Of a stretch of 64,000 nucleotides of DNA, positions 5,211-63,847 are shown in pieces (within the stretch, counting starts at the first letter, position 1; each line of letters opens with the position of its first letter). Location of the stretch: positions 4,787-68,786 of the forward strand of contig CAMJJD010000002.1 of NCBI GenBank assembly GCA_946406015.1, given 5' to 3'. The stretch is from an uncultured Bacteroidales bacterium. GTDB taxonomy: Bacteria; Bacteroidota; Bacteroidia; Bacteroidales; P3. The translations under genes were made by a program, and so were the position numbers. The notes beneath the pieces are model-generated. The model saw only the letters and a list, made by a program, of their open reading frames with translations, ran no database searches and was not told the origin of the DNA.

Positions 5211-6239
5211 TTACTGGTTGGCGTACTGCTGCACCTCGTCGTGGAAGAACTCCAGCTGGATACCCGCCTGGCGGAACAGTTCCTCGCTCTCGGCACCGGC
5301 GTGGTACTTGCGCTCGCAGACCACCCGCTTGATGCCACAGTTGATAATCAGCATGGCGCAGGTGCGGCAGGGCGTCATACGGCAGTAGAGCGTGGCACCG
5401 TCGAGGGCGATGCCGCGGCGGGCCGCCTGGCAGATGGCATTCTGCTCGGCATGCACGGTGCGCACACAGTGGGTCGAGATATGGCCGTCGGCGTCGATGG
5501 TCTGGCGGAAAAGGTGCCCCACCTCGTCGCAGTGCGGCAAGCCGGCGGGCGAGCCGACATAGCCGGTCACCAGCAACTGACGGTCCTTGACGATGACGCA
5601 GCCCGAGCGGCCACGGTCGCAGGTGGCGCGGCGGGCGGCGGCGTTGGCCAATTCCATGAAGTATTCGTCCCACGACGGACGGCGGTAGGTAATCTGCTGC
5701 AGCACCTCCTCCACCTGCCGGTTGAGGTCGTCGATGGTGCCCCCGTTGTCAAAGCGGAAGTCGGCCTGCTCGATGCAGTACTTCAGATTCTGCTTGTTGG
5801 GGTCGGTATTGTCCATCTCGCGCTGTTCGTTGGCGATGAAGGTGTCGTAGTCGATGTGGTCGGTCTCCGAGCCGCGCAGCACGGCGCGCTCATAGCGTAC
5901 CCGCGGGTCGGCGTCGACGGCAAAGAGGTAGAAGCTTTGCTTGCCGCGCAGGGCCTGCACTTCGCCAGGGGTGCGCACACTCTCGATGATACAGTTGCAG
6001 CCCGAAGCGGAAGCCTTCTCGTACAGCTGCTCCACAATCCACGACGGCGAATGCTGTGCCCGCAGGTCGTTACCTACGGCAGTCATCGTGTCGCGGTTCA
6101 CCTCCAGCCCGCGGCGCTTGATTTCCTCGGTGAGGAAGGCCCGCACCGAATAGTGCACAAAACCACGGTTCTTGACAAGATAGTCGACGATGGTGCCCTT
6201 GCCGGCACCGAGCGTCCCAGTGATTCCGATTGTGATCAT
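5211..6239 (-). CDS. fusion protein: N-terminal P-loop nucleotide kinase-like domain + C-terminal dCMP deaminase domain
   Basis: Start chosen at MITIGITGTLGAGKGT (Walker A at the extreme N-terminus). The C-terminal half has HAEQNAI and PCRTCAMLI dCMP-deaminase zinc motifs. The longer ORF starts at 6302. Confidence 0.85.
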   Translation of the reverse strand: MITIGITGTLGAGKGTIVDYLVKNRGFVHYSVRAFLTEEIKRRGLEVNRDTMTAVGNDLRAQHSPSWIVEQLYEKASASGCNCIIESVRTPGEVQALRGKQSFYLFAVDADPRVRYERAVLRGSETDHIDYDTFIANEQREMDNTDPNKQNLKYCIEQADFRFDNGGTIDDLNRQVEEVLQQITYRRPSWDEYFMELANAAARRATCDRGRSGCVIVKDRQLLVTGYVGSPAGLPHCDEVGHLFRQTIDADGHISTHCVRTVHAEQNAICQAARRGIALDGATLYCRMTPCRTCAMLIINCGIKRVVCERKYHAGAESEELFRQAGIQLEFFHDEVQQYANQ

Positions 6240-6324: not shown

Positions 6325-6371
6325 TCTGTATTATATACAATAAAGAGTGGTTTTCCCGCGTTTTAACGCGC

Positions 6372-7610
6372 ATGAGAGTACTGCTGATCGTGGTTGCCGT
6401 GCTGTTGTTGACGGCGGTCGTGGGCGTGATCTGGCTCACCGGCAAGCCGCACGTCACCCCCCTGCTGCCCCCCGACGAGGAGCAGGCGCTGGACGCCCTG
6501 CTGCCTCCCGGCGTGGAACGGGGCAACCACATCACGACCTACGCCAGCCTTGGCGCCATGTACGACACCCTGCTCGCCGACATCGCGGGCGCCCGACAGC
6601 ACATACACCTTCAATTCTTCAAGTTCGAGGACGACGCCACCGCCCACGAGGTGGGCGACGCGCTGGCGGCCAAGGCCGCCGAAGGGGTCGAGGCGCGCCT
6701 GATGTACGACGACTTCGGGTGCCAGCCGTGGAAAGGCTACTACCGCCAGCTGGAGACGCGCGGCGTGGCCACGGCCGGCTTCGGTCGCGTGCGCTGGGCC
6801 TGGGTGCGCAAGACCGACTACTACCGCAACCACCGCAAGTGCGTGGTCGTCGACGGACGCATCGCCTACCTAGGCGGCATCAACATCGCCGACCGGTACC
6901 TGCACGGCCTGCCGTGGGGCTGCTGGCGCGACACGATAATCCGCATCGAAGGCCCGGCTGCCCTGGCGGTGCAGCGGGCTTTTGCCGCCGACTGGCGCCA
7001 TGCGGGCCGGGGGCTGCTGGCCGACCGGGCCTACTTCCCGGCCGTGGCGCCGGCGGGCACCCTGCCACTGCACCTGATCACCTCGGGGCCCATCGGCCAA
7101 GGGCCCACCATCATGCACCACACCATCGGCATGCTCGACGCGGCGCAACGCTACGTCTGGTTCGAGTCGCCCTACTTCATACCGCCCGCTCCCCTGCGCG
7201 AGGCCCTGCTGCGGACCGCGCGCCGCAGCGTCGACGTGCGGGTGCTGCTGCCCCCGCGGGGCGACCGCGGCGAGGTCACCCAGTGGGCATCGAAGAGCTA
7301 CCTGGCCGAGATGATGGACGCCGGTGTACACTTCGGCTTCTACCAGCCGGGCTTCCTGCACTCCAAGCTGGTGGTCAGCGACGACCGCGAAGCCATGGTG
7401 GGCTCGTGCAACATCGACCCCCGCAGCTATCTCCTCTGCCAGGAGGTGGCCGCCGTGGTGGACGATGCCGCCTACGCCGCCGAGTTGCGCGACCTCTTCC
7501 TGGCCGACGAGGCGCAGTCGATCCCCGTCGACCCCGCCCGCTGGGCACAGCGCCCCCTCGGCGAGAAAGCCATGGAGCAGCTGGCACGCCTGGCGGCCTC
7601 CCAGTTATAA
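6372..7610 (+). CDS. cls: cardiolipin synthase (phospholipase D family)
   Basis: It has an N-terminal TM segment and two HKD motifs (HRKCVVVDG...GGINI and HSKLVVSDD...GSCNID). Start moved to MRVLLIVVAVLLL at 6372. Confidence 0.85.
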   Translation: MRVLLIVVAVLLLTAVVGVIWLTGKPHVTPLLPPDEEQALDALLPPGVERGNHITTYASLGAMYDTLLADIAGARQHIHLQFFKFEDDATAHEVGDALAAKAAEGVEARLMYDDFGCQPWKGYYRQLETRGVATAGFGRVRWAWVRKTDYYRNHRKCVVVDGRIAYLGGINIADRYLHGLPWGCWRDTIIRIEGPAALAVQRAFAADWRHAGRGLLADRAYFPAVAPAGTLPLHLITSGPIGQGPTIMHHTIGMLDAAQRYVWFESPYFIPPAPLREALLRTARRSVDVRVLLPPRGDRGEVTQWASKSYLAEMMDAGVHFGFYQPGFLHSKLVVSDDREAMVGSCNIDPRSYLLCQEVAAVVDDAAYAAELRDLFLADEAQSIPVDPARWAQRPLGEKAMEQLARLAASQL

Positions 7611-15730: not shown

Positions 15731-15803
15731 CTCCGTAGTTTGTCCGTGCGCAGTCGGACCATCCTCGGAGTTGTTACGGAGATACTACGGAGAAACTACG
15801 GAG
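15731..15803. repeat. seven 11-bp-phased CGGAG-type half-sites (2 inverted + 5 direct)
   Basis: ctccgt 15731 and gtccgt 15742 are in inverted orientation. tcggac 15754, tcggag 15765 and acggag 15776, 15787, 15798 are in direct orientation. Confidence 0.8.
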
Positions 15804-15933
15804 ACGCTGCATTCAGAACACTGATTATCATTCGTTTACAGATAAGCAAATCACTATAAATGCTCTTTTTCAGGACTTTAATCCCACAAACGTCCTATTG
15901 CTTCCTTGCGACAAATGACATCGAGAGGGGTGT

Positions 15934-33575: not shown

Positions 33576-33912
33576 TAAATACATCGCGCACGACCAATTC
33601 CTCACCAGGGAAAATTTACCCCCACAACACCACCGCGTCCCCTCCGACCGAACTCCGACTACAGTCGGAGTAGTATCGGAGTAACCTCGGAGTAGCATCG
33701 GAGATGTATCGGAGATGATGCTATCTACCAGCGACTTACATTCTATTTGTATACACACACATGTGATAACCAAGTAGATACATTATCCACAAGACGCCTG
33801 GGGACCATCTTCAGCCACCTGGAGCGTCAGCGACCATCCATCGGGCACGACAGCAACGGAAATAGATTTTGCCCGTTCAAAATCACTAATTAAATCGTGT
33901 ACGATTTATTTC
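33576..33912. promoter_or_regulatory. cassette B: paralogue of cassette A upstream of upxY, with more degenerate bounding repeats
   Basis: Left site taaatacatcgcgcacga (33576-33593). The reverse complement of the right site (33895-33912) is gaaataaatcgtacacga, giving 14/18 matches. The internal layout matches cassette A. A near-consensus -7 box tagattttg lies at 33863-33871. Confidence 0.45.
33642..33714. repeat. seven 11-bp-phased TCGGAG half-sites (2 inverted + 5 direct)
   Basis: ctccga at 33642 and 33653. tcggag at 33665, 33676, 33687, 33698 and 33709. The central perfect palindrome is ctccgac-taca-gtcggag (33653-33670). Confidence 0.85.
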
Positions 33913-34017
33913 CACAACCCCTTCCGACTGTCGTCACAGAAGGGGTGGTTTTCTCCCCGTTGTGGATTATTTCTCGGCAAAACGCGTTTTTTATTTGGTG
34001 GTATAAAATGTTTTTTG

Positions 34018-34025
34018 TATATTTG
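34018..34025 (+). promoter_or_regulatory. -7 promoter box (TATATTTG) for the upxY operon; implies a ~155-nt 5' leader
   Basis: Exact TAnnTTTG. The upxY ATG is at 34189. Confidence 0.55.
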
Positions 34026-34188: not shown

Positions 34189-34674
34189 ATGGAAAAACAC
34201 TGGTACGCATTCAAGGTCTATTACAATCACGTGCAGCCGCTTATCTCCGATTGCCTGGAGTCAGGGCTTGAGTTCTTCGCACCGACAGATGTCATCAAGT
34301 CATTGCTTTTTCTGCACTGCAGCGAGACCGACATGGCTCATTTCGTTGTGAACCACCATAGACAAGCATGGGTATACTACAACACCGAGCGCACTCAGGC
34401 TGCCGTGATTCCCGACCGTGAGATGGAAGTGTTCCGTTTCGTGGTCACGGCTGGACGCGACGGACTGGAGGTGCTGGGTGACGACCGACCCGAATACCAT
34501 GAGGGCGACCGCGTGGTGGTCACCGGCGGCCCCTTCAAAGGTGCTGAGGGACACATCAAACGCATCAAACGCGACCGCCGCCTGGTCGTCACCATCCGCG
34601 GCGTCGTCGCCGTCGCCACCACCTACATACACCCCAGCCTGCTCCGCAGAGTCGATGAGTCTATGAGTCATTGA
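34189..34674 (+). CDS. upxY: UpxY-family transcription antiterminator (NusG paralogue)
   Basis: Start at MEKHWYAFKVYY (typical UpxY/NusG NGN start). The C-terminal KOW motif is GDRVVVTGGPFKGAEGHIKRI. This is the first gene of a polysaccharide locus. Confidence 0.85.
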   Translation: MEKHWYAFKVYYNHVQPLISDCLESGLEFFAPTDVIKSLLFLHCSETDMAHFVVNHHRQAWVYYNTERTQAAVIPDREMEVFRFVVTAGRDGLEVLGDDRPEYHEGDRVVVTGGPFKGAEGHIKRIKRDRRLVVTIRGVVAVATTYIHPSLLRRVDESMSH

Positions 34675-34719
34675 GTCTGTGAGTCTATGAGTCTGTGAGT
34701 CAATGAGTGTATAAGTATA
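34656..34719. repeat. 8-bp tandem array TGAGTCNN x8, overlapping the last 6 codons and stop of upxY
   Basis: TGAGTC (or a decayed version of it) starts at 34656, 34664, 34672, 34680, 34688, 34696, 34704 and 34712, in exact 8-bp register. Confidence 0.85.
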
Positions 34720-34740
34720 TGAAACAACACGTTAGATGGC

Positions 34741-35100
34741 ATGAAAAGGGTTTTTGAAAATCTATTTGTATGGCAAGAAGCGAGAACTTTGGTGGGTGAA
34801 GTATATTCCATGCTGGATGGTTCGAGAGATTACGGGTTTAAAGACCAAATACAACGCGCTAGCGTGAGCATCATGAATAATATTGCCGAAGGAGCTGACT
34901 GTGGTTCTGATGCCAAATTCGTCAACTACCTTAACACCGCACGAGGTAGTTGCTCCGAAGTAAAAAGCACGCTTTATTTGTGTGAGGATTTAGGCTTATG
35001 TGGCAGTGAGAAGCGCACAGAATTGCAAGGGCGAGTAAACCAAATATCTTATGGGCTCGCTAAATTAATAGAGTCAATAAAACCCACTCCAGAGCGATAA
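34741..35100 (+). CDS. four-helix-bundle protein (23S rRNA intervening-sequence protein / Avd-like family)
   Basis: 119 aa. LFVWQEARTLVGEVY...QIQRASVSIMNNIAEG...ARGSCSEV is characteristic of this family. Confidence 0.85.
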   Translation: MKRVFENLFVWQEARTLVGEVYSMLDGSRDYGFKDQIQRASVSIMNNIAEGADCGSDAKFVNYLNTARGSCSEVKSTLYLCEDLGLCGSEKRTELQGRVNQISYGLAKLIESIKPTPER

Positions 35101-35114
35101 AGGCTCTATCCTCG

Positions 35115-35153
35115 AAGACTCATAGTCTTATTGTCTTAAAGACTCATAGTCTC
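35115..35153. repeat. two copies of AAGACTCATAGTCT, the inverse complement of the upstream TGAGTC array words
   Basis: aagactcatagtct occurs at 35115 and 35139. AGACTCATAG is the reverse complement of CTATGAGTCT at 34685-34694. Confidence 0.8.
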
Positions 35154-35163
35154 AAGGTCTATC

Positions 35164-36330: not shown

Positions 36331-36505
36331 GAGCCCGCAAGCGGGCGACAGTCATTAGCCGTGGGCGTCAACCCACGGAACAAGAAACAAAGACGACACA
36401 TTGAGAAGCCCTGAAAGGGCGACAGTCATTAGCCGTGGGCGTGAGCCCACGGAAACAAAACAGAAAACTCCCTTTTTAAGAGCCCCGTAGGGGCGACAGA
36501 CAACT
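36331..36505. repeat. 2.5 copies of a 74-bp unit, each made of two hairpins joined by GACAGTCATTAG
   Basis: A 26-bp identical block occurs at 36343-36368 and 36417-36442. Hairpin a lies at 36333-36346, 36408-36420 and 36482-36494. Hairpin b lies at 36359-36378 and 36433-36452. Confidence 0.85.
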
Positions 36506-37937: not shown

Positions 37938-39056
37938 ATGACCGAGATGCAACTGGCATACAACATGCTGAAAGCTGCCCTGGACGGGAGCAAGCCCTGT
38001 CTAGGCATCGAACTGCCCGATACCAACCACTGGTGGAGCCTCTTCCGCCTGCTGCAACGCAACCGTGTGGCGGCACTATGCTATGAGGCGGCAGCGACTG
38101 CAGGAGCACCGCGCACAGTGTTGATGCCCTGGCTGGCCGAACATGAGAAGGCCGTCGACTGGCACCGCCACCAGCGACAGGTGCAGCAGGACATCATCGA
38201 CACCATGGCGCGTCACGGTATCGAGACGCTCGTGCTGAAGGGGACCCGCCTGGCGCAGTACTACCCGAGACCCGAGGAGCGCGAGTTCGGCGATCTGGAC
38301 CTCTACTTCTACGACCGGCACAAGGAAGCCGACCGAGTAGCACGAAATGTGTTGAAGGTAGAAGTCAGCAACGACGCCCACCACCACAGTAAATACAACT
38401 ACCGCGGCGTGACGGTGGAGAGCCACTACGACTTCGTCAACGTGCACTATCCACCCAGCAACCGCCGGTATGAAGCCTTGCTCAAAGAGTTAGTCGGTAA
38501 TAATAGCCTCACCGACTCAAAGTCTCAAAGTCTCAAAGTCTCAAGGACTCAAGGACTCAAAGACTCAACGGCTCAAGGTCAACTTTCAACTTTCGAAATT
38601 CTCTTCCTGCTCCGCCATATGGCCTGCCACTTCGCCTCGAGCCGTATCACCCTGCGCGAACTGACGGATTGGGCACTCACCTGCCAGGCGTTGCAAGGAG
38701 AGGTGGATTGGAAACGGGTACAACAGTCGGTCGACGACTACGGCATGAGGCCGTTTGCCAGCGCTCTGAACCTCATCGCAGAACGACAGCTGGGAATCGT
38801 CCTGCCATTGCAAAATGACAACAATCCGGATATTCTGGCCAACACGGCCTCTCTCGAGCGTGACATCGTCTACGGGAGCCCTGAGACCGACGACAAGAAT
38901 GCAGACGGCCTTGGCCGCCTCACATGGAAGATGCGCCGCTGGAACGCCCTCGCCTGGAAGCGCAAGATGGTCTACAGCGACAGCCCATCGAGCCTGATGC
39001 TGGCCAGCCTCACCTCCCACGCCGAGAAACCCCGCAGCATCCTGCACAAACAATAA
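37938..39056 (+). CDS. uncharacterised nucleotidyltransferase-family protein (NTP_transf_5-like) carrying an in-frame 8-bp-repeat insertion
   Basis: 372 aa. The GDLDLYF motif preceded by LVLKG is typical of the 'uncharacterised nucleotidyltransferase' family. The family call is by recall. Confidence 0.55.
   Translation: MTEMQLAYNMLKAALDGSKPCLGIELPDTNHWWSLFRLLQRNRVAALCYEAAATAGAPRTVLMPWLAEHEKAVDWHRHQRQVQQDIIDTMARHGIETLVLKGTRLAQYYPRPEEREFGDLDLYFYDRHKEADRVARNVLKVEVSNDAHHHSKYNYRGVTVESHYDFVNVHYPPSNRRYEALLKELVGNNSLTDSKSQSLKVSRTQGLKDSTAQGQLSTFEILFLLRHMACHFASSRITLRELTDWALTCQALQGEVDWKRVQQSVDDYGMRPFASALNLIAERQLGIVLPLQNDNNPDILANTASLERDIVYGSPETDDKNADGLGRLTWKMRRWNALAWKRKMVYSDSPSSLMLASLTSHAEKPRSILHKQ
38514..38585 (+). 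repeat. 8-bp tandem array (GACTCAAA/GTCTCAAA type, 8-9 units) inside the nucleotidyltransferase CDS
   Basis: Units start at 38514, 22, 30, 38, 46, 54, 62, 70 (and 78). The array encodes TDSKSQSLKVSRTQGLKDSTAQGQ. Confidence 0.85.
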
Positions 39057-39088
39057 TCTCAATCAAAACTAAAAAAACAAAAGAGCTC

Positions 39089-39199
39089 GAAATCTTGATG
39101 TCTCGACATCTCGATGTTTTTTCGACTTTTTTACTTTTCGTCTTTTAACTCAGCGACTAACACATTAACGCATTTACACATTAACACATTCATATAATG
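39089..39199 (+). repeat. ~14-unit 8-bp-periodic tract running into the wzt start codon; its last 40 bp are 38/40 identical to 62259-62298
   Basis: gaaatctt gatgtctc gacatctc gatgtttt ttcgactt ttttactt ttcgtctt (one 1-nt register slip) tttaactc agcgacta acacatta acgcattt acacatta acacattc atataATG. Confidence 0.8.
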
Positions 39200-40465
39200 G
39201 CCACTGCCATCGAATTCAATAATATCAGCAAAATCTACCGCCTGGGAATGGTCGGCACCGGCACCTTGGCGCACGACTTGAAGCGCTGGTGGACAATGAA
39301 CGTCCGCGGTAAGGAAGACCCTTACCTGACCATCGGTGAGACCAACGACCGCAGCACCAAGGGCGAGAGCGAGTACGTATGGGCCTTGAGGGATATCGAC
39401 TTCAAAGTGGAGCAGGGCGACGTGGTGGGCATCATCGGCAAGAACGGTGCCGGCAAGAGCACCCTGCTGAAGATTCTCTCCAAGGTCACTGCGCCCACCA
39501 CCGGCACCATCCGTGCCCGTGGACGTATCGGCAGTCTGTTGGAGGTCGGCACCGGCTTCCATCCCGAGATGACGGGAAGGGAGAACATCTACATGAACGG
39601 TGCCATCCTCGGCATGACCAAAGCCGAGATTACCAAAAAACTTGATGAGATTGTCGACTTCAGCGGCTGCGAGCGTTATATCGACACCCCCGTGAAGCGT
39701 TACAGCAGCGGCATGATGGTGCGCTTAGGTTTTGCCGTCGCCGCCCATCTCGACCCAGAAATATTGGTCGTCGACGAAGTCCTCGCCGTCGGCGACGCCG
39801 AATTCCAGAAGAAAGCCATCGGCAAGATGCAGGATGTGAGTAGAGGTGAAGGAAGGACGGTATTATTTGTGAGTCATAATATGGCAAGTATACGAGCTCT
39901 CTGCCACACTGGCATACTCCTGAATAATGGCCACATACAAACCATAGGCAAGATAAATGAAGTAGTAGAAACTTACATTGGAGGCAAGAAAGACAGCAAC
40001 AATTCTATTTACGAAGACATTGCCATTGCTCCAGGAAACGACAAGATCCGAATCCGCGAATTTTCCATAAACCCTATACATGGAAATATAATTGATGTAG
40101 AATCAGGCATTCATATAAATCTTGTTTTCAAAAACAACACCCCAAACATCATACTGGACACAACATTTGAATTACGTACTGCTGATGATGTAATTGTATT
40201 CCATACAGGGAAGGTGCTGAGTCCCGATGGTGATTCTCGAAAAGGGTTCTACCAAGTAAATTTTGACATCCCCGCCCACACCCTCAATACAGGAAACTAC
40301 ACATTACGAATATGGTTCGGACAGAATCAGAAATACATTCTTTGGGGAACCTATGAGCATTACTTCCATATAGAAAACACATACACTAACCAAGGTCGAA
40401 ACCTCAATAATCTTCCTGGAATAATGAAACCACAATTCGATATAAGCACTAGTTTTTTAGAGTAA
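39197..40465 (+). CDS. wzt: polysaccharide ABC exporter ATP-binding protein with C-terminal glycan-binding-type domain
   Basis: 422 aa with Walker A GKNGAGKST, signature YSSGMMVRL and Walker B LVVDEVLAVGD. The ~170-aa C-terminal extension is as in Wzt/TagH. Composition changes abruptly near 39840-39870. Confidence 0.88.
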   Translation: MATAIEFNNISKIYRLGMVGTGTLAHDLKRWWTMNVRGKEDPYLTIGETNDRSTKGESEYVWALRDIDFKVEQGDVVGIIGKNGAGKSTLLKILSKVTAPTTGTIRARGRIGSLLEVGTGFHPEMTGRENIYMNGAILGMTKAEITKKLDEIVDFSGCERYIDTPVKRYSSGMMVRLGFAVAAHLDPEILVVDEVLAVGDAEFQKKAIGKMQDVSRGEGRTVLFVSHNMASIRALCHTGILLNNGHIQTIGKINEVVETYIGGKKDSNNSIYEDIAIAPGNDKIRIREFSINPIHGNIIDVESGIHINLVFKNNTPNIILDTTFELRTADDVIVFHTGKVLSPDGDSRKGFYQVNFDIPAHTLNTGNYTLRIWFGQNQKYILWGTYEHYFHIENTYTNQGRNLNNLPGIMKPQFDISTSFLE

Positions 40466-48768: not shown

Positions 48769-49256
48769 CTCAATCAGATTGTAAAAGATTATAAAAGAAA
48801 ATGTCTGACGAATGTCTGACAACTTAGCATACAACATTATTGGCTGCGTACTGAAAGTTCATTCTAAGCTCGGTCCCGGATTACTGGAGTCTGTCTATCA
48901 GAAAGCCCTGATGATTGAACTGGACAATGAATGCCTTTTGGCTGAAGAGGAAGTTCCTCTGGAAGTAATGTATGACGACCAGAATCTAGGTATTGGCTTC
49001 AGGATGGACATTCTTGTCGAAGATCAGATTGTTCTTGAGCTTAAATCTGTTTCGGCGTTAGAAAAGGTTCACTATAAACAACTACAGACATACTTATCTC
49101 TTGCAAATAAACCATTCGGTTATTTGATTAACTTCAATTCGGACGATTTCAGCATCGGTAACGGCATTCACAAAATAACAAACCTCAAATACAATCGCGA
49201 AAAAGGATCTTTCTGATAGTTCTTTTAGTTCTGATTGAATTATAAATCTGATTGAG
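48769..49256. repeat. 12-bp perfect inverted repeat pair (CTCAATCAGATT / AATCTGATTGAG) bracketing the GxxExxY ORF
   Basis: ctcaatcagatt at 48769-48780 and aatctgattgag at 49245-49256. A further tcaatcaga-type word in inverse orientation lies at 49230-49238. Confidence 0.8.
48812..49216 (+). CDS. GxxExxY protein (PD-(D/E)xK-like, PDDEXK_3 family)
   Basis: 134 aa with the GPGLLESVYQKAL signature. An AATGTCTGAC 10-mer is duplicated at 48800 and 48811 around the start codon. Confidence 0.85.
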   Translation: MSDNLAYNIIGCVLKVHSKLGPGLLESVYQKALMIELDNECLLAEEEVPLEVMYDDQNLGIGFRMDILVEDQIVLELKSVSALEKVHYKQLQTYLSLANKPFGYLINFNSDDFSIGNGIHKITNLKYNREKGSF

Positions 49257-49268
49257 CCTTAAATCTGT

Positions 49269-58020: not shown

Positions 58021-58071
58021 CTCCGCAGATAGTCCGACCACAGTCGGACATACTGCGGTGTAAATACGGAG
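58021..58071. repeat. degenerate third copy (C) of the phased CGGAG module
   Basis: ctccgc 58021, gtccga 58032, tcggac 58044, gcggtg 58055 and acggag 58066 keep the same 11/12/11 spacing. The hairpin gtccgac-caca-gtcggac lies at 58032-58049. Confidence 0.6.
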
Positions 58072-58125
58072 TCGACACGAAATAGGTCGCGAACGACATA
58101 TATCTAATTTCATAGCCACCACACC

Positions 58126-59883: not shown

Positions 59884-60873
59884 ATGAATAAAGTTTCATA
59901 TTCAGTTGTTATTCGCACTCTAGGAAATACGGGAGAAAAGTACCGTACAATGCTGAACGCCATTGAACGGCAAACTGTCAAACCACAAGAAGTGATTGTC
60001 GCTATTCCAGATGGTTACTCATTAGACCATACACTAGGTTACGAAAAAATTGTACGGTGCAACAAAGGAATGGTGACACAACGGGCCGCAGGTATCGAAG
60101 CCGCTCAAGGCGATTATCTACTGGTGTTGGACGATGATTTGGATTTCCCAGCTGATTTTGCGGAACAGATGTACAACCATCTACAGGCAAAACAGTTGGA
60201 TTGTACGCTGGCATTCCCCAACGGTGGTAACCACAACAATGAACCTCCACAAAAAGTTTCTAAGAAAACGCGGTTACTTGCAGAGGTCAAGAGGGCTCGG
60301 GGAGCCTTTACCGGACAGGTTTTTTATAGTCGCCGCAAAAGTGAATGGTTTGATGTCATCACCAGCACGGCCGGGCACCGCACCTATGTCAACTGCGAGG
60401 ACAAACTGTGTCAAGCAGGCTGTTTCCAATGCTTCTTCATCAAGGGATCGATGGCCAAAGATGTCAGATTTGATGAAGAGGTATGGCTGGAGCAAGGGAG
60501 TCTGTCAAAATACGCTGCTTATGACGATGCAGTGTTTTTCTATAAGTTATATTTGCATGGCGGGCGTATTGCTTACACCCCCAACACGGGATACACACAT
60601 CTGGACGCTGGTGCGGGACGTCCTGCAAAAAGCAAACTGGAGGCCAAGCGCATACGGCTCTACACCATTGCCCGCAACCGCACTCTGTTCTGGCTGTTAC
60701 ATATCTGGCCCAGCCGTCACAAAGTGCGCACCCTGCTGGGAGGAATCTATGCGTTGGTCAACTATACATTATATAACCTCATCATCAATCTACACCCCAA
60801 ATATTGGCCTGCCATCAGTGCTCTTTTTGCGGGTTATCGTGACGCATTTAAGTATTACAAAAAGGGACTATGA
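59884..60873 (+). CDS. glycosyltransferase family 2-like protein
   Basis: YSVVIRTLGNTGEKYRTMLNAIERQTVKPQEVIVAIPDG and LVLDDDLDF. An ATG at 59884 lies within an ORF that starts at 59875 (TTG). Confidence 0.7.
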   Translation: MNKVSYSVVIRTLGNTGEKYRTMLNAIERQTVKPQEVIVAIPDGYSLDHTLGYEKIVRCNKGMVTQRAAGIEAAQGDYLLVLDDDLDFPADFAEQMYNHLQAKQLDCTLAFPNGGNHNNEPPQKVSKKTRLLAEVKRARGAFTGQVFYSRRKSEWFDVITSTAGHRTYVNCEDKLCQAGCFQCFFIKGSMAKDVRFDEEVWLEQGSLSKYAAYDDAVFFYKLYLHGGRIAYTPNTGYTHLDAGAGRPAKSKLEAKRIRLYTIARNRTLFWLLHIWPSRHKVRTLLGGIYALVNYTLYNLIINLHPKYWPAISALFAGYRDAFKYYKKGL

Positions 60874-61604
60874 TACCCAAGACAATACATTACTGCTGGT
60901 TTGGTCGTGGCGAGATGCCTCAGTTGGCTCAGGACTGCATCGTATCGTGGCATAACCATATGCCTGACTGGAATTACAAGCTCTGGAATGAAGACAACTT
61001 CGATGTCGACAGCGTGCCCTATACCCAAGAAGCCTACGCTGCCAGAAAGTATGCTTTCGTCACCGACTATGTGAGGCTGTACGCCCTTAGCACCGAGGGT
61101 GGTGTGTATATGGATACCGACGTGGAAATACTAAAACCTCTGGACGACCTGCTCCACCTCAAGGCTTTCACCGGCTATGAAGGCAGTAAACACAAGCCGC
61201 CTGTCACAGGTTTGATGGCCAGCGAGGCAGGCGGACAATGGGTCGAGGAACAACTGCATGCTTACGACAATGCACACTTCCTTATGCCTGACGGCAGCTA
61301 TGATACAACAACAAACACCTGGCGCATCAGTCGCATCATGCAATCCAACGGGTTCGTATGCGACGGAAAGATGTCTCAATATAAGGACCTGACTGTATTC
61401 CCCTCGGATTACTTCTGTCCGCATCAGACCACCGGCGAGTACCTGCTCACCGAAAACACCTACTGCAATCATCACTTCATGGGCTCATGGAACAAGAAGG
61501 ACAGCAAAGGATGGAAAGGGGTCCTGCTTAAACTGATTGGCCAGAAAAATATGACCAAACTGATAAAACTCAAACGCCGCTTAGAACGGCTCAATCAGAA
61601 CTAA
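60870..61604 (+). CDS. glycosyltransferase family 32 (Gly_transf_sug / OCH1-like)
   Basis: IPKTIHYCWFG..., FVTDYVRLYALSTEGGVYMDTDVE (DxD). The last 5 codons and the stop are supplied by the CTCAATCAGAACTAA repeat. Confidence 0.75.
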   Translation: MIPKTIHYCWFGRGEMPQLAQDCIVSWHNHMPDWNYKLWNEDNFDVDSVPYTQEAYAARKYAFVTDYVRLYALSTEGGVYMDTDVEILKPLDDLLHLKAFTGYEGSKHKPPVTGLMASEAGGQWVEEQLHAYDNAHFLMPDGSYDTTTNTWRISRIMQSNGFVCDGKMSQYKDLTVFPSDYFCPHQTTGEYLLTENTYCNHHFMGSWNKKDSKGWKGVLLKLIGQKNMTKLIKLKRRLERLNQN

Positions 61605-61730
61605 AAAAAACAATCAAAAAGGATAACCGGAAGCTCCGTAAGTCGAGCGCAGTGTTATGCTAGCTTGAACAATGCCGAGATGAAGGAGCGATGACAAAGT
61701 CAATTAACCGAATTAAACCGAATACTCTTT

Positions 61731-61877
61731 GACCTTTCGACTCTTCAACTCCACAGAAACTCTATCAGAACAAAAAGAACAAACAGATTTTTTCAATCAG
61801 ATTGTAAAAGATTTTAAAAGAAACATGATGTCTCGTTGTCTTTTTGACCTTTCGACTCTTCAACTCCACAGAAACTC
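61731..61877 (+). repeat. 32-bp perfect direct repeat (period 115 bp), each copy followed by related A-rich words
   Basis: gacctttcgactcttcaactccacagaaactc occurs at 61731-61762 and 61846-61877. Confidence 0.85.
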
Positions 61878-61976
61878 AATCAAAACCAAAAGAACAGAAA
61901 AGAAATTCGTTGGATTCGTGTGATTCGTGGTCGTTTATATTTCCATCAGATTTGAAAAGATTGTAAAAGAAAACTC

Positions 61977-62107
61977 TTCGACTTTTTGACCTTTCGACTC
62001 TCCGACTTTTCGTCTCTTTGACTCTGCTACTCGTAGTCTCGTTGTCTCACAGACTCAAGGACTCACAGACTTATAGACTCAGCAACTTTTCGACTCTTCG
62101 TCTCACA
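61977..62107 (+). repeat. 8-bp-phased tract, ~16 units, core G(A/T)CT
   Basis: The core G (or a substitute base) falls at 61980, 88, 96, 62004, 12, 20, (28), 36, 44, 52, 60, 68, 76, (84), 92, 100, in exact register. Confidence 0.85.
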
Positions 62108-62138
62108 TTAATCTCAATCAGATTGTAAAAGAAAACTC

Positions 62139-62298
62139 TTCGACCTTTCGTCTTTTTGACTCTTCGACTCAAAGACTCAATGTCTCAATGTCTCATTGAC
62201 TCACAGACTCATAGTCTTTTTGACTTTTCGACTCTTTAACCTTTTGACTTTTCGACTTACACATTAACGCATTTACACATTAACGCATTCATAAAATG
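62139..62298 (+). repeat. 8-bp-phased tract, 20 units, ending on the ATG of the GT-C gene
   Basis: ttcgacct ttcgtctt tttgactc ttcgactc aaagactc aatgtctc aatgtctc attgactc acagactc atagtctt tttgactt ttcgactc tttaacct tttgactt ttcgactt acacatta acgcattt acacatta acgcattc ataaaATG. Confidence 0.9.
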
Positions 62299-63699
62299 CT
62301 TTCTTTCTTCCCAAAACAAATAGCCACCAAAGGCATCTACCTCTACCTTGGGGCTTTGACTGCCATCTCGCTAGTGTTCTTCCGTCATGCGATGGCCATT
62401 GACTTCCTGATTATGGGAGTGATGTGGGTGGTGGGATTCTTTCTGCTGAGTTCATATTGTAGTCAAAAATGGCAAGAAATACCTCAGAAGAAACTGTTAC
62501 GCAACCTGTTCCTTACAGCTTTGGGGTTGAGATGGGCATGGGCGATCTTCAGCTACTTCTACTACTCTGCAAAAACAGGAATGCCCTTCGAGTTTTCGGC
62601 TGGTGACTCCATCTGGTATTACGAAGAATCGATGGGCAATGTGCACGCTCCCATCAAGGCCATCTGGAATTACCTATTTGTCTCTACCGATTCCATCTCT
62701 GACTCAGGCTACATATTCTACCTCTCGCTACTCTCCAAGGTGACAGGCTACAGTATTTTGTTGCCACGATTGGTCAATAGCATCTTCAGTGCCGCCACTG
62801 TCTTATTGGTTTACCTACTGGCCAAACGCAACATTGGCGAGGAGGGTGGCCGGTTAGCGGCGGTTTTCACCTGTTTCATGCCCAACCTTATCTTCTATTG
62901 TGGCATGCACCTGAAAGAATCTTTCATGCTATTCCTCCTGATAGCCTTTTTGGAGCGTTCCGACTACCTGTTGCGAAGCAAGAAATACAATGTATTTACC
63001 ATCATCATTCCAGTACTGCTCGGTGTCAGCTTGTTTTCGTTTCGTACGGTGTTAGGCGGTGCGGCCGTCTTCTCGTTTGTCACGGCTTTGGTGTTCACCA
63101 ACACCGCTGTCGTGGGACGATGGAAACGGATTATGCTCATTTCATGGGGAGTACTGGCTGTAGTAACATTAACTGGCGGTGTCATCACAACCGAGGTACA
63201 AGCCACCTGGGAAGACCGCGAAAGCAACCAGGATGCCAAAAGATCAATACAGACTGCGAGAGGTAACCAATGGGCTAAGTACGCCACCGGTACCGTCATG
63301 GCACCCATGATGTTCGTCATGCCGTTCCCTACGATGGTGGATGTGGACGAGCAATACAACCAGCAGATGCTCAGCGGCGGAAACTATGTGCGAAACTTCT
63401 TCGGTGGATTTGTGCTCATTGCCGTGTTCAGTGCCATATTCATCACTAAAAACTGGCGCAATCTAAGCCTCATCGGCTCCTTCGTAATCGCCTATCTGGG
63501 TATCATCTCGTCCAGCGGCTTCGCCAACTCGGAGCGATTCCTACTGCCAGCCTTGCCCTGTCTACTTATCATTGCGGCTTACGGGGTGACGCTGCTGAAT
63601 GCAAAGAATTACAAGTTCATAAAAATATGGTACTGGGTGGTGCCAGTGATGGCCTTCGCCTGGGCGTTCTTCAAACTGGGCTCCCGCGGTTTGTTCTAG
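62296..63699 (+). CDS. polytopic GT-C-type membrane glycosyltransferase (ArnT/PMT_2-like)
   Basis: 467 aa with about 11 predicted TM segments. There is an early extracytoplasmic acidic loop (FEFSAGDSIWYYEE) and an LLVYLLAKR region, as in the GT39/GT83 families. Tentative. Confidence 0.55.
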   Translation: MLSFFPKQIATKGIYLYLGALTAISLVFFRHAMAIDFLIMGVMWVVGFFLLSSYCSQKWQEIPQKKLLRNLFLTALGLRWAWAIFSYFYYSAKTGMPFEFSAGDSIWYYEESMGNVHAPIKAIWNYLFVSTDSISDSGYIFYLSLLSKVTGYSILLPRLVNSIFSAATVLLVYLLAKRNIGEEGGRLAAVFTCFMPNLIFYCGMHLKESFMLFLLIAFLERSDYLLRSKKYNVFTIIIPVLLGVSLFSFRTVLGGAAVFSFVTALVFTNTAVVGRWKRIMLISWGVLAVVTLTGGVITTEVQATWEDRESNQDAKRSIQTARGNQWAKYATGTVMAPMMFVMPFPTMVDVDEQYNQQMLSGGNYVRNFFGGFVLIAVFSAIFITKNWRNLSLIGSFVIAYLGIISSSGFANSERFLLPALPCLLIIAAYGVTLLNAKNYKFIKIWYWVVPVMAFAWAFFKLGSRGLF

Positions 63700-63847
63700 C
63701 TAACCGAACTATCCGAAACAAGCCGAACAACTTCTTCTCTAACCGAACTATCCGAAGTAATCCGAATAACTAATTTTCTAACCGAATCACCAGAAGCAAG
63801 CCGAACAACTTCTCCTCTAACCGAATCATACGAAATAATCCTAAATC
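63700..63847 (+). repeat. 39-bp tandem repeat x3.8 (CTAACCGAA... units) between the GT-C stop and the next start codon
   Basis: Units start at 63700, 63739, 63778 and 63817. Each carries 2-3 CCGAA words. Confidence 0.88.

Follow-up and report, generated by a model that had tools for sequence, protein, structure and literature searches.

What holds two long series of 8 bp repeats in register between two glycosyltransferase genes, and how did they come to lie there? The question is posed by a 64,000 nt stretch of DNA from an uncultured Bacteroidales bacterium (assembly GCA_946406015.1, contig CAMJJD010000002.1, positions 4,787 to 68,786; hereafter the window), in which the spacer upstream of a gene for a GT-C-like membrane glycosyltransferase (the GT-C gene) contains two tandem tracts, A and B, the second of which leads into a tail module that ends on the GT-C start codon. 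Such a spacer is absent from most orthologous junctions, relatives gain and lose its units whole, and arrays of the same kind flank, in inverted orientation, small genes of the 23S_rRNA_IVP (S23p; here IVP) and PDDEXK_3 (GxxExxY) families. We think it slightly more probable than not that the tracts are orphan arms of such small-gene cassettes, which resemble the intervening sequences (IVSs) of ribosomal RNA (rRNA) genes, and that they grow by whole units.

Anatomy and turnover of the repeat tracts

The original prediction, made from the sequence alone, was of two tracts in 8 bp register that end on the ATG of the GT-C gene, and this is confirmed far beyond chance: the window contains 31 runs of three GWCTCNNN units (allowing no more than one mismatch) against 0.03 expected from shuffled sequences. 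Its further statement that every 8-mer conforms to the pattern is right as to phase, since all 26 of the G[AT]CT[CT] pentamers in the tracts (13/13 in A, 13/13 in B) fall in one phase per tract, but too strong as to sequence: 13 of the 16 units of tract A and 13 of the 15 units of tract B fit NNNG[AT]CT[CT] strictly, the other five being off by one or two bases. The pentamer has a frequency of 0.0033 per base across the window. Tandem Repeats Finder also reports a period of 8 for the tracts, with diverged units (71–84 % matches), and lag-8 self-identity rises above 0.6 in the window only at 34.6, 38.5, 39.1 and 62.0–62.3 kb. The tracts start 162 bp apart and are thus mutually out of phase by two bases. 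Unlike a CRISPR array, with its 23–50 nt repeats and unique spacers, they are contiguous 8-mers without spacers.

After tract B the 8-mer reading continues as ACACATTA ACGCATTT ACACATTA ACGCATTC ATAAAATG, and the last of these units contains the GT-C start codon at 62296–62298. This ATG opens an open reading frame (ORF) of 467 aa, and because all of the full-length homologues found align from residue 1 it is the genuine start. Other copies of the tail module are present at 39157–39199, before an ABC ATPase gene, and in the related loci L121, L136 and L147 (loci from other genomes are numbered with the prefix L), and every copy found is in forward orientation and directly abuts an ATG. G makes up 12–15 % and C 26–30 % of the tracts, and in the tail A accounts for 43 % and G for 5 %.

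The spacer is also a mosaic of longer words. Tracts A and B are linked by 34 bp that copy the 'CAGATTGTAAAAGA' word, and this word also precedes tract A. The word beginning TCAATCAGATTGTAAAAGATT, of which the spacer holds three copies, also forms the left arm of GxxExxY cassettes in L121, L142 and L144 and at 48775 in the window, so that each tract has a GxxExxY-cassette left-arm word just before it. Blastx and blastn searches with the non-repetitive 95 bp at 61618–61712 revealed no gene remnant and no copy elsewhere.

The core of the unit, GACTC or GAGTC, is a GANTC site and, as GAGTC, a type IIS site of the PleI/MlyI kind, and it had accordingly been speculated that the tracts concentrate restriction or methylation sites. 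We regard this as very improbable. Outside the arrays GACTC occurs 64 times (60.3 expected) and GAGTC 38 times (40.1 expected), so that neither is avoided or enriched; GTCTC and further variants account for half of the units; and arrays of the same architecture elsewhere are built on other cores, among them GAGTGGCA, GGTAATT, GATTGTT and GCCCAAT.

A scan of metagenomes with the GT-C protein recovered 43 loci at 51–96 % identity, 36 of which hold both the GT-C gene and the glycosyltransferase gene upstream of it. The two genes overlap or nearly abut (gap of −4 to +4 bp) in 19 of the 36; in 14 they are separated by 20–355 bp of variable short-unit repeats of several kinds, and in three by two extra genes. 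The gap of 691 bp in the window is the longest among the gene-pair loci compared. Since the spacer is absent from most orthologous junctions, a conserved role for it, and with it a reading of the tracts as a conserved regulatory spacer of the GT-C gene, is not supported.

Comparison with relatives shows how the tracts change. In the closest of these, L121 (96 % amino acid identity), the first seven units of tract A are identical to those of the window and are continued, without loss of register, by the last units of tract B, and L147 carries an exact insertion of 40 bp, or five units. The comparison of strains that had been proposed thus reveals differences by whole units, and growth in whole units, also anticipated, is seen directly. 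Selection on the phase, which had been offered as a possible reason for its retention, is not needed, since units that are gained and lost whole keep the phase. The spacer and its flanks also differ in their divergence. Between the window and L147 the GT-C genes are 72.6 % and the upstream genes 69.9 % identical at the DNA level, whereas 148 bp of the spacer (61843–61990) are 96.6 % identical and the 301 bp that follow the GT-C stop codon, comprising a repeat arm and the start of a GxxExxY gene, are 98.7 % identical. Near-identical copies in diverged genomes are a feature of mobile elements, and because these segments are so much more alike than the genes around them, the spacer modules and the arm behind the GT-C gene have moved or recombined recently and independently of the surrounding genes.

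These comparisons bear on the possibility that the spacer is a selected RNA leader, C-rich, G-poor and unstructured, that uncouples the translation of the two genes and provides a Rho-loading (rut-like) site. The GT-C gene and those behind it would then be expressed only by polymerase carrying the UpxY (NusG-like) antiterminator, and the A-rich tail would serve as a start site independent of Shine–Dalgarno pairing. The base composition of tracts and tail is in keeping with such a leader; the predicted fold of the spacer RNA is no better than those of shuffled sequences (z −0.16), that is, unstructured; the locus opens with a KOW/UpxY gene and a promoter motif; the sense strand is the pyrimidine strand in all four of the orphan arrays of the window; and the tail module is found in forward orientation only, next to an ATG. 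We nevertheless consider this explanation unlikely, in view of the 19 of 36 orthologous junctions that lack any spacer, the free variation of length and unit content among close relatives, and a pitch of YC dimers (8 nt) that is shorter than the approximately 9–13 nt usually quoted for Rho sites.

Inverted arrays around IVP and GxxExxY genes

Arrays of G(A/T)CTC-type 8-mers are present in the window at five places beyond the GT-C spacer, among them 34649–34722 (in the opposite orientation), 35115–35160, 38514–38594 and 39086–39150. The first two of these bracket an IVP gene, with nine GAGTCNNN units on its left and six NNNG(A/T)CTY units on its right, and pair with each other in both the minimum free energy and the centroid RNA folds (z −2.56). 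This architecture is general among the IVP genes sampled. When these genes were picked by protein alone, so as to avoid a bias from the repeat pattern (eight from Bacteroidales and four from cyanobacteria), inverted short-unit arrays were found on both sides of all 12, with 8-mers in Bacteroidales and 7-mers in cyanobacteria. The cyanobacterial genes ('S23 ribosomal protein / four helix bundle') are from Tolypothrix, Fischerella, Kamptonema and Merismopedia (L198–L203), and the inverted heptamers of cyanobacteria, including those of Dolichospermum (L028), are GGTAATT with CCAATTA, TTGATTG with CAACAAT and GCATGGG with GCCCAAT, which resemble the classical heptamers of short tandemly repeated repetitive (STRR) sequences. 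Among loci of other genomes that were selected by their repeat pattern there are five more IVP cassettes, two in Bacteroidales metagenome-assembled genomes (MAGs), one in a Thermoguttaceae MAG (Planctomycetota), one in another genome and one, of 7-mers, in Dolichospermum.

The complementarity of the two arms exceeds that of all 100 shuffles in 10 of 12 cassettes scored (eight protein-picked, four pattern-selected), and in nearly all of the flanks inspected the 5′ arm appears G-rich and the 3′ arm C-rich, L172 being an exception. The number of units varies between strains, and in cyanobacteria greatly; the right arm of the Fischerella cassette, for instance, is 12 units long in one genome but exceeds 40 in a second. 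At the orthologous site between the UpxY and sugar transferase (Bac_transf) genes, the left and right arms are GAGTGGCA and CCACTCTG in the L180 family and GAGTCTAT and ATAGACTC in the window, while the flanking proteins are 72–77 % and the IVP proteins 62 % identical; the arms differ on both sides, and the two have therefore changed together. Two features tie the GT-C spacer to these cassettes: the right arms of L188, L191 and L164 contain the tract A units GTAGTCTC, GTTGTCTC and ATAGACTC, either unaltered or with a single altered base, and the arrays of L172–L179 extend to the next ATG, as does the tail of the spacer.

That the arrays are binding sites for a protein of DNA or RNA, with one subunit on each 8 nt unit and the orphan arrays acting as extra operators or decoys, is suggested by the fixed 8 bp pitch, the conserved five-base core with its three-base variable spacer, and the company of IVP genes across phyla. 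The candidates would be the pentameric IVP/S23p protein encoded 27 kb upstream of the tracts, which is related to XCC0516 (PDB entry 2GSC, with five chains), or a ribbon-helix-helix protein of the MetJ/ParG type, the MetJ boxes and the ACTC boxes of ParG having an 8 bp period as well. This seems to us rather improbable, and somewhat more so than the leader. The core changes from GAGTC to GAGTGGCA between cassettes with approximately 60 % identical IVP proteins, no ribbon-helix-helix gene is among the ten proteins scanned with Pfam (mostly neighbours of arrays, including the products of the genes that flank the tracts), arrays are tolerated within a coding region too, and the GT-C spacer is without a promoter motif.

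The mismatches within paired arms comprise 52 G.U and 86 A.C oppositions and thus show no excess of G.U, although this is a weak test since the arrays pair in many registers. Given the lack of a G.U excess, it may be concerted evolution or a common origin, acting on the DNA, and not selection on the sense RNA, that keeps the arms complementary. By analogy with IVS elements it is plausible that the paired arms of complete cassettes are substrates for RNase III. A rival explanation has the pyrimidine arrays as antisense targets of the single purine array (34649–34722) at the 5′ end of the operon; pairing over long range or in trans would create RNase III substrates beside the start codons of the GT-C and sugar transferase genes and inside the gene for NTP_transf_5, and would co-ordinate the processing of a 30 kb transcript. 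With a score of 19, the purine array is indeed less complementary to its own right arm than to tract A (30.5, over 63 nt) or to tract B and the in-ORF array (27.5 each), and the stems of IVS elements with the same gene family are cut by RNase III (PMC4990558). Complementarity of this kind, however, follows automatically from a shared core of five bases in eight, the arm mismatches show no preference for G.U, and the spacer itself has no purine array; we put little faith in this explanation.

The second kind of cassette contains a PDDEXK_3/GxxExxY gene. In what we call simple relatives, the next glycosyltransferase gene begins 3–10 bp after the GT-C stop codon, whereas in the window and in other relatives a GxxExxY gene sits exactly between that stop codon and the next ATG, again with inverted arms. 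The pairs of arms seen around GxxExxY genes are CTAACCGAA.../...TTCGGTTAG, CTCAATCAGAACTAAAAGAAC/GTTCTTTTAGTTCTGATTGAG and CAGATTGTAAAAGA/TCTTTTAAAATCTG, and in the L147 cassette the right arm TTCGGTTAG abuts the next ATG.

Arrays of the same type also occur inside genes. The array at 38514–38594 is translated as a 28 aa insertion in the NTP_transf_5 protein that is missing from orthologues of 344 aa with 94–96 % identity; a near-identical insertion is present in a homologue with 73 % identity. Other NTP_transf_5 homologues (proteins P0121–P0226) carry insertions encoded by the repeats at two hot spots, this one and another (SLEVSKSR, for example, is the translation of three GTCTCGAA units), and the presence or absence of insertions does not track protein similarity. 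On this evidence 8 bp arrays can invade permissive protein loops. An 8 bp unit is not a whole number of codons, so that a change of one unit would shift the NTP_transf_5 reading frame, and the array is possibly a contingency locus; set beside such a locus, the GT-C tracts have diverged units, lie upstream of an ATG and are accompanied by no promoter motif.

A native ..GACTTTCGA.. sequence seems to be where the in-ORF arrays nucleate, which, with the whole-unit insertions and deletions and the abundance in many phyla of near-perfect GWCTC 8 bp arrays with no IVP gene nearby, would fit an ordinary minisatellite that grew in place by slippage from a chance proto-repeat and has no tie to cassettes. 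We give such an origin only a small probability for the GT-C tracts: their spacer is a mosaic of word types that serve as cassette arms elsewhere, the 96.6 % identical modules are shared with a genome in which gene identity is only about 70 %, and the same unit variants are present in the arms of IVP genes.

Several further observations concern the cassettes themselves. Some IVP genes (L172–L179, L202) have a full hairpin of purine and pyrimidine arrays on each side, in the form of ORF-less foldbacks, in place of a single arm to the left and to the right. In L062, inverted 7-mer arrays (TGAATGT at 5826–5858 and CATTCAC at 6331–6373) bracket not a small gene but the first approximately 150 codons of an 816 aa ORF on the minus strand, so that inverted arrays can also occur apart from IVP genes. 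For many IVP proteins the only source is a contig of less than 2 kb, and of the 128 pattern-selected arrays 29 are no more than 150 bp from the end of their contig; these facts suggest that the flanking arrays are where assemblies of short reads break. At 48800–48820 in the window an 11 bp tandem duplication, AATGTCTGACG, holds the start codon of a GxxExxY gene and produces an out-of-frame ATG 11 nt upstream.

The spacer in its polysaccharide locus

From about 34 kb to its end the window is a single co-directional polysaccharide locus, with genes for a KOW/UpxY-like protein, 23S_rRNA_IVP, a sugar transferase, an ABC-2 transporter, an ABC ATPase, NTP_transf_5, several glycosyltransferases, the GT-C-like protein and PDDEXK_3 (Table 1). 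The intergenic regions of the window outside this locus contain no 8 bp arrays, and the other spacers within it draw on a small vocabulary of words in both orientations (CTCAATCAGAAC..AAAAGAAC, CAGATTGTAAAAGATT and CTAACCGAA).

Table 1. Positions of the repeat tracts, cassettes and associated features in the window
Feature	Coordinates	Strand	Remarks
Tract A	61977–62104	+	16 units of 8 bp, NNNG(A/T)CTY; sense strand pyrimidine-rich; G 15 %
Tract B	62139–62258	+	15 units of the same 8 bp NNNG(A/T)CTY type; G 12 %
Tail module	62259–62298	+	(ACRCATTN)x4 + ATAAAATG; ends on start codon of GT-C-like gene
Word 'TCAATCAGATTGTAAAAGATT..', copy 1	61791–61823	+	Repeat family D4
Word 'TCAATCAGATTGTAAAAGATT..', copy 2	61940–61972	+	Immediately before tract A
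Word 'TCAATCAGATTGTAAAAGATT..', copy 3	62112–62144	+	Linker of tracts A and B
57 nt module, two copies 93 % identical	61725–61781, 61840–61896 (span 61725–61896)	+	GACTC units; word CTCAATCAGAAC..AAAAGAAC
GT-C-like membrane glycosyltransferase gene	62296–63699	+	Weak Alg9-like Pfam match; downstream of tracts
Upstream glycosyltransferase gene	60870–61604	+	Overlaps or abuts GT-C gene in 19/36 related loci
Purine-strand array, GAGTCNNN x9	34649–34722	+	Left arm of IVP cassette; overlaps final codons of UpxY/KOW gene
23S_rRNA_IVP (four-helix-bundle, S23p) gene	34741–35100	+	PF05635, E-value 1.5e-28; PDB 2GSC, XCC0516
Pyrimidine-strand array, NNNG(A/T)CTY x6	35115–35160	+	Right arm of IVP cassette; stops 3 nt before sugar transferase ATG
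8 bp-type array within NTP_transf_5 ORF	38514–38594	+	In frame; 28 aa insertion
8 bp arrays CTCGANNT, TTTTCGAC and tail module	39086–39199	+	Arrays 39086–39150; tail ends on ABC ATPase ATG (39197)
CTAACCGAA-type array, 39 bp higher-order unit	63700–63847	+	Left arm of PDDEXK_3/GxxExxY cassette; directly after GT-C stop codon
Second GxxExxY cassette	48770–49268	+	Left arm CTCAATCAGATTGTAAAAGA..; gene 48812–49216; right arm ..GTTCTTTTAGTTCTGATTGA..AATCTGATTGAG
Bacteroidetes-type promoter motif TTTG..TAnnTTTG	33994–34025	+	Only full one near the locus; upstream of UpxY gene

The explanation that we favour, descent of the tracts from cassette arms, would run as follows. A complete cassette consists of a small gene, for either a four-helix-bundle protein (23S_rRNA_IVP/S23p) or a protein with a nuclease fold (PDDEXK_3/GxxExxY), between two inverted short-unit arrays, the 5′ array G-rich and the 3′ array C-rich, and fits precisely between an operon gene's stop codon and the ATG that follows. 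Upstream of the GT-C gene the junction would at first have been empty, with the two genes overlapping or abutting, and would then have been colonized by pieces of cassettes, namely left-arm words of the GxxExxY type and G(A/T)CTC 8-mers of the right-arm type. Slippage or unequal recombination would since have expanded and contracted the arrays in whole 8 bp units, which would account for a phase that is kept while the units diverge. The spacer is most likely transcribed as part of a long operon from the promoter upstream of the UpxY gene; scans of the spacer itself found no Bacteroidetes promoter motif, sigma-70 promoter or terminator, and it matches no Rfam family. Its RNA would form a G-poor, essentially unstructured intercistronic leader that is tolerated rather than selected, and the conserved A-rich tail (ACACATTAACGCATTCATAAA-ATG) would supply the context of the GT-C start codon. 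This group of organisms does not rely on Shine–Dalgarno pairing, and the context that the tail provides is compatible with translation of that kind.

A number of observations weigh against such a descent. The spacer contains no remnant of an IVP or GxxExxY gene, and hence no PF05635 ORF, and there is no inverted purine-strand partner of the tracts within 8 kb; for these reasons descent from a complete cassette can be inferred only from the type of sequence. A local iterative hidden Markov model, which is a weak detector, found an IVP gene within about 8 kb in only five of 120 pattern-selected loci of other genomes, and a search of the same kind found GxxExxY genes in none of the 120. Given the five of 120, most of the 8 bp GWCTC arrays seen across phyla are either independent of IVP genes or orphans as well. 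No transposase was seen with the cassettes, the boundaries of which coincide with a stop codon and an ATG. The consistent sense strand of the four orphan arrays, taken with a tail that abuts the ATG, also hints at some selection at the RNA level, which a wholly neutral account would not lead one to expect. No signal came from the way in which the 128 pattern-selected arrays are oriented with respect to ORFs, the ORF calls being noisy in genomes of high G+C and where repeats themselves make ORFs. An origin of GAGTC repeats through a nickase and a polymerase was also considered and set aside, as other cassettes use unrelated cores.

Some features of the locus lie apart from the tracts. The G+C content falls at about position 40000 from approximately 55–60 % to approximately 38–48 % for the remainder of the locus, which is consistent with a horizontally exchanged variable part. 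The Rfam motif Acido-Lenti-1 matches the minus strand at 36332–36378 (55.9 bits, above the gathering score) and 36407–36452 (31.6 bits), both within a 175 bp spacer between the sugar transferase and ABC-2 genes that is composed of repeated GC-rich hairpins ending GGGCGACAG. Arrays with a period of 11 bp and a TCGGAG/TACGGAG core are present at 33640–33715, 15775–15804 and approximately 58040–58090. The array at 33.65 kb is preceded by two inverted copies of CTCCGA, and two of the arrays lie upstream of promoter-like regions that share the box AAATCGTG(T/C)ACGATTTATTT (at approximately 15.98 and 33.89 kb); these 11 bp arrays may represent another element, distinct from the tracts, that lies upstream of polysaccharide or Sus-like loci.

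For the window itself, the outcome is the removal of a false lead, in that the periodicity upstream of the GT-C gene does not mark a conserved control region, and the architecture of the cassettes is a more interesting result than the tracts with which the question began. A broader proposal is that IVP/S23p and GxxExxY genes generally ride on mobile, foldback, IVS-like cassettes with inverted arrays of 7–8 nt units, which span phyla and enter both operons and rRNA; that a considerable part of the unexplained arrays, such as the cyanobacterial STRR sequences, those resembling TAACTGA and the 8-mers described here, are arms or footprints of these cassettes; and that the units may be the target of the small protein, whether it is a partner in RNA processing or a mobility factor. 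We put this forward tentatively, and think it distinctly more doubtful than the origin suggested for the tracts alone. If the association does hold genome-wide, it would describe a selfish-element architecture common in Bacteroidota and Cyanobacteria, would offer a handle on the role of the IVP protein through its repeat arms, RNase III and unit turnover, and would help to explain why metagenome assemblies frequently break at IVP and GxxExxY genes.

Relation to known repeats and intervening sequences

Inverted termini made of short tandem repeats in variable number are typical of the foldback (FB) transposons of Drosophila and other eukaryotes, some of which have a gene in the loop while many are ORF-less. 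The cassettes resemble these in architecture only, since FB elements are eukaryotic, have other unit sizes and in some cases a known transposase, and no homology is implied. BOX elements of Streptococcus pneumoniae and MITEs (miniature inverted-repeat transposable elements) are dispersed modular intergenic repeats with a variable number of internal modules that occupy transcribed spacers, but the modules of BOX are 45–59 bp long rather than 8 bp, and a MITE has duplications of its target beside defined terminal inverted repeats. Terminal inverted repeats, the feature of MITEs and foldback elements, are present in complete IVP and GxxExxY cassettes and absent from the GT-C spacer. Among protein-bound arrays, those of ribbon-helix-helix proteins are the closest in form: MetJ binds 8 bp met boxes, and ParG binds ACTC boxes with 4 bp spacers. 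The 8 bp pitch, the short conserved core and the variable spacer are shared, whereas the tracts are far longer, with some arrays in coding sequence, and have beside them neither a ribbon-helix-helix gene (among the ten proteins scanned) nor a promoter or partition locus.

The nearest counterpart of the cassettes is the IVS in 23S rRNA that carries an S23p gene, as in Coxiella burnetii and Leptospira (PMC4990558). The Coxiella element consists of an S23p ORF and a 28 bp terminal stem that is cut by RNase III, has tandem heptamers (GACAGAT, two or three copies) upstream of the ORF in a number that varies between strains, and is regarded as selfish (PMC4990558). The window cassette at 34649–35160 has the same ingredients, namely a PF05635 gene, complementary termini and variable short repeats. 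It differs in that cassettes of the window lie between genes of mRNA operons rather than in helix 25 or 45 of 23S rRNA, and in that cassette arms are long arrays, of up to more than 40 units, instead of a 28 bp stem. The GT-C spacer is more distant again, having neither ORF nor partner arm nor stem, and it lies between two glycosyltransferase genes. IVP has been described as functionally uncharacterized and as occurring inside cas operons and rRNA insertions (PMC3936711; bioRxiv 10.1101/2024.02.27.582315). Apart from the heptamers of the Coxiella IVS, a literature search of incomplete coverage found no description of inverted tandem arrays around IVP or GxxExxY genes, and novelty is not thereby proven. 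The cassettes would link three poorly understood things: short-unit tandem arrays at start codons, the very widespread IVP and GxxExxY genes, which look functionless and occur within operons (those of polysaccharide loci here, those of cas genes in PMC3936711), and the intervening sequences of rRNA.

The nearest counterpart of the tracts themselves is the family of TAACTGA heptamer arrays, which end next to start codons that lack a Shine–Dalgarno sequence, show whole-unit insertions and deletions, and occasionally have in-frame copies within ORFs (MacGregor, 2015; PMC4679880). The same paper summarizes the survey by Mrazek of long simple sequence repeats, with units of 5–11 nt, and it makes no connection with IVP or GxxExxY genes, nor with partner arrays in inverted orientation. 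Compared with the TAACTGA and STRR families, the unit here is the 8 nt NNNG(A/T)CTY with a variable 3 nt spacer, and the arrays are much longer and more diverged. Like TAACTGA arrays, STRR heptamers and long simple sequence repeats, the GT-C tracts consist of head-to-tail units in numbers beyond chance, end at a start codon, differ between relatives by whole units and have related arrays within ORFs.

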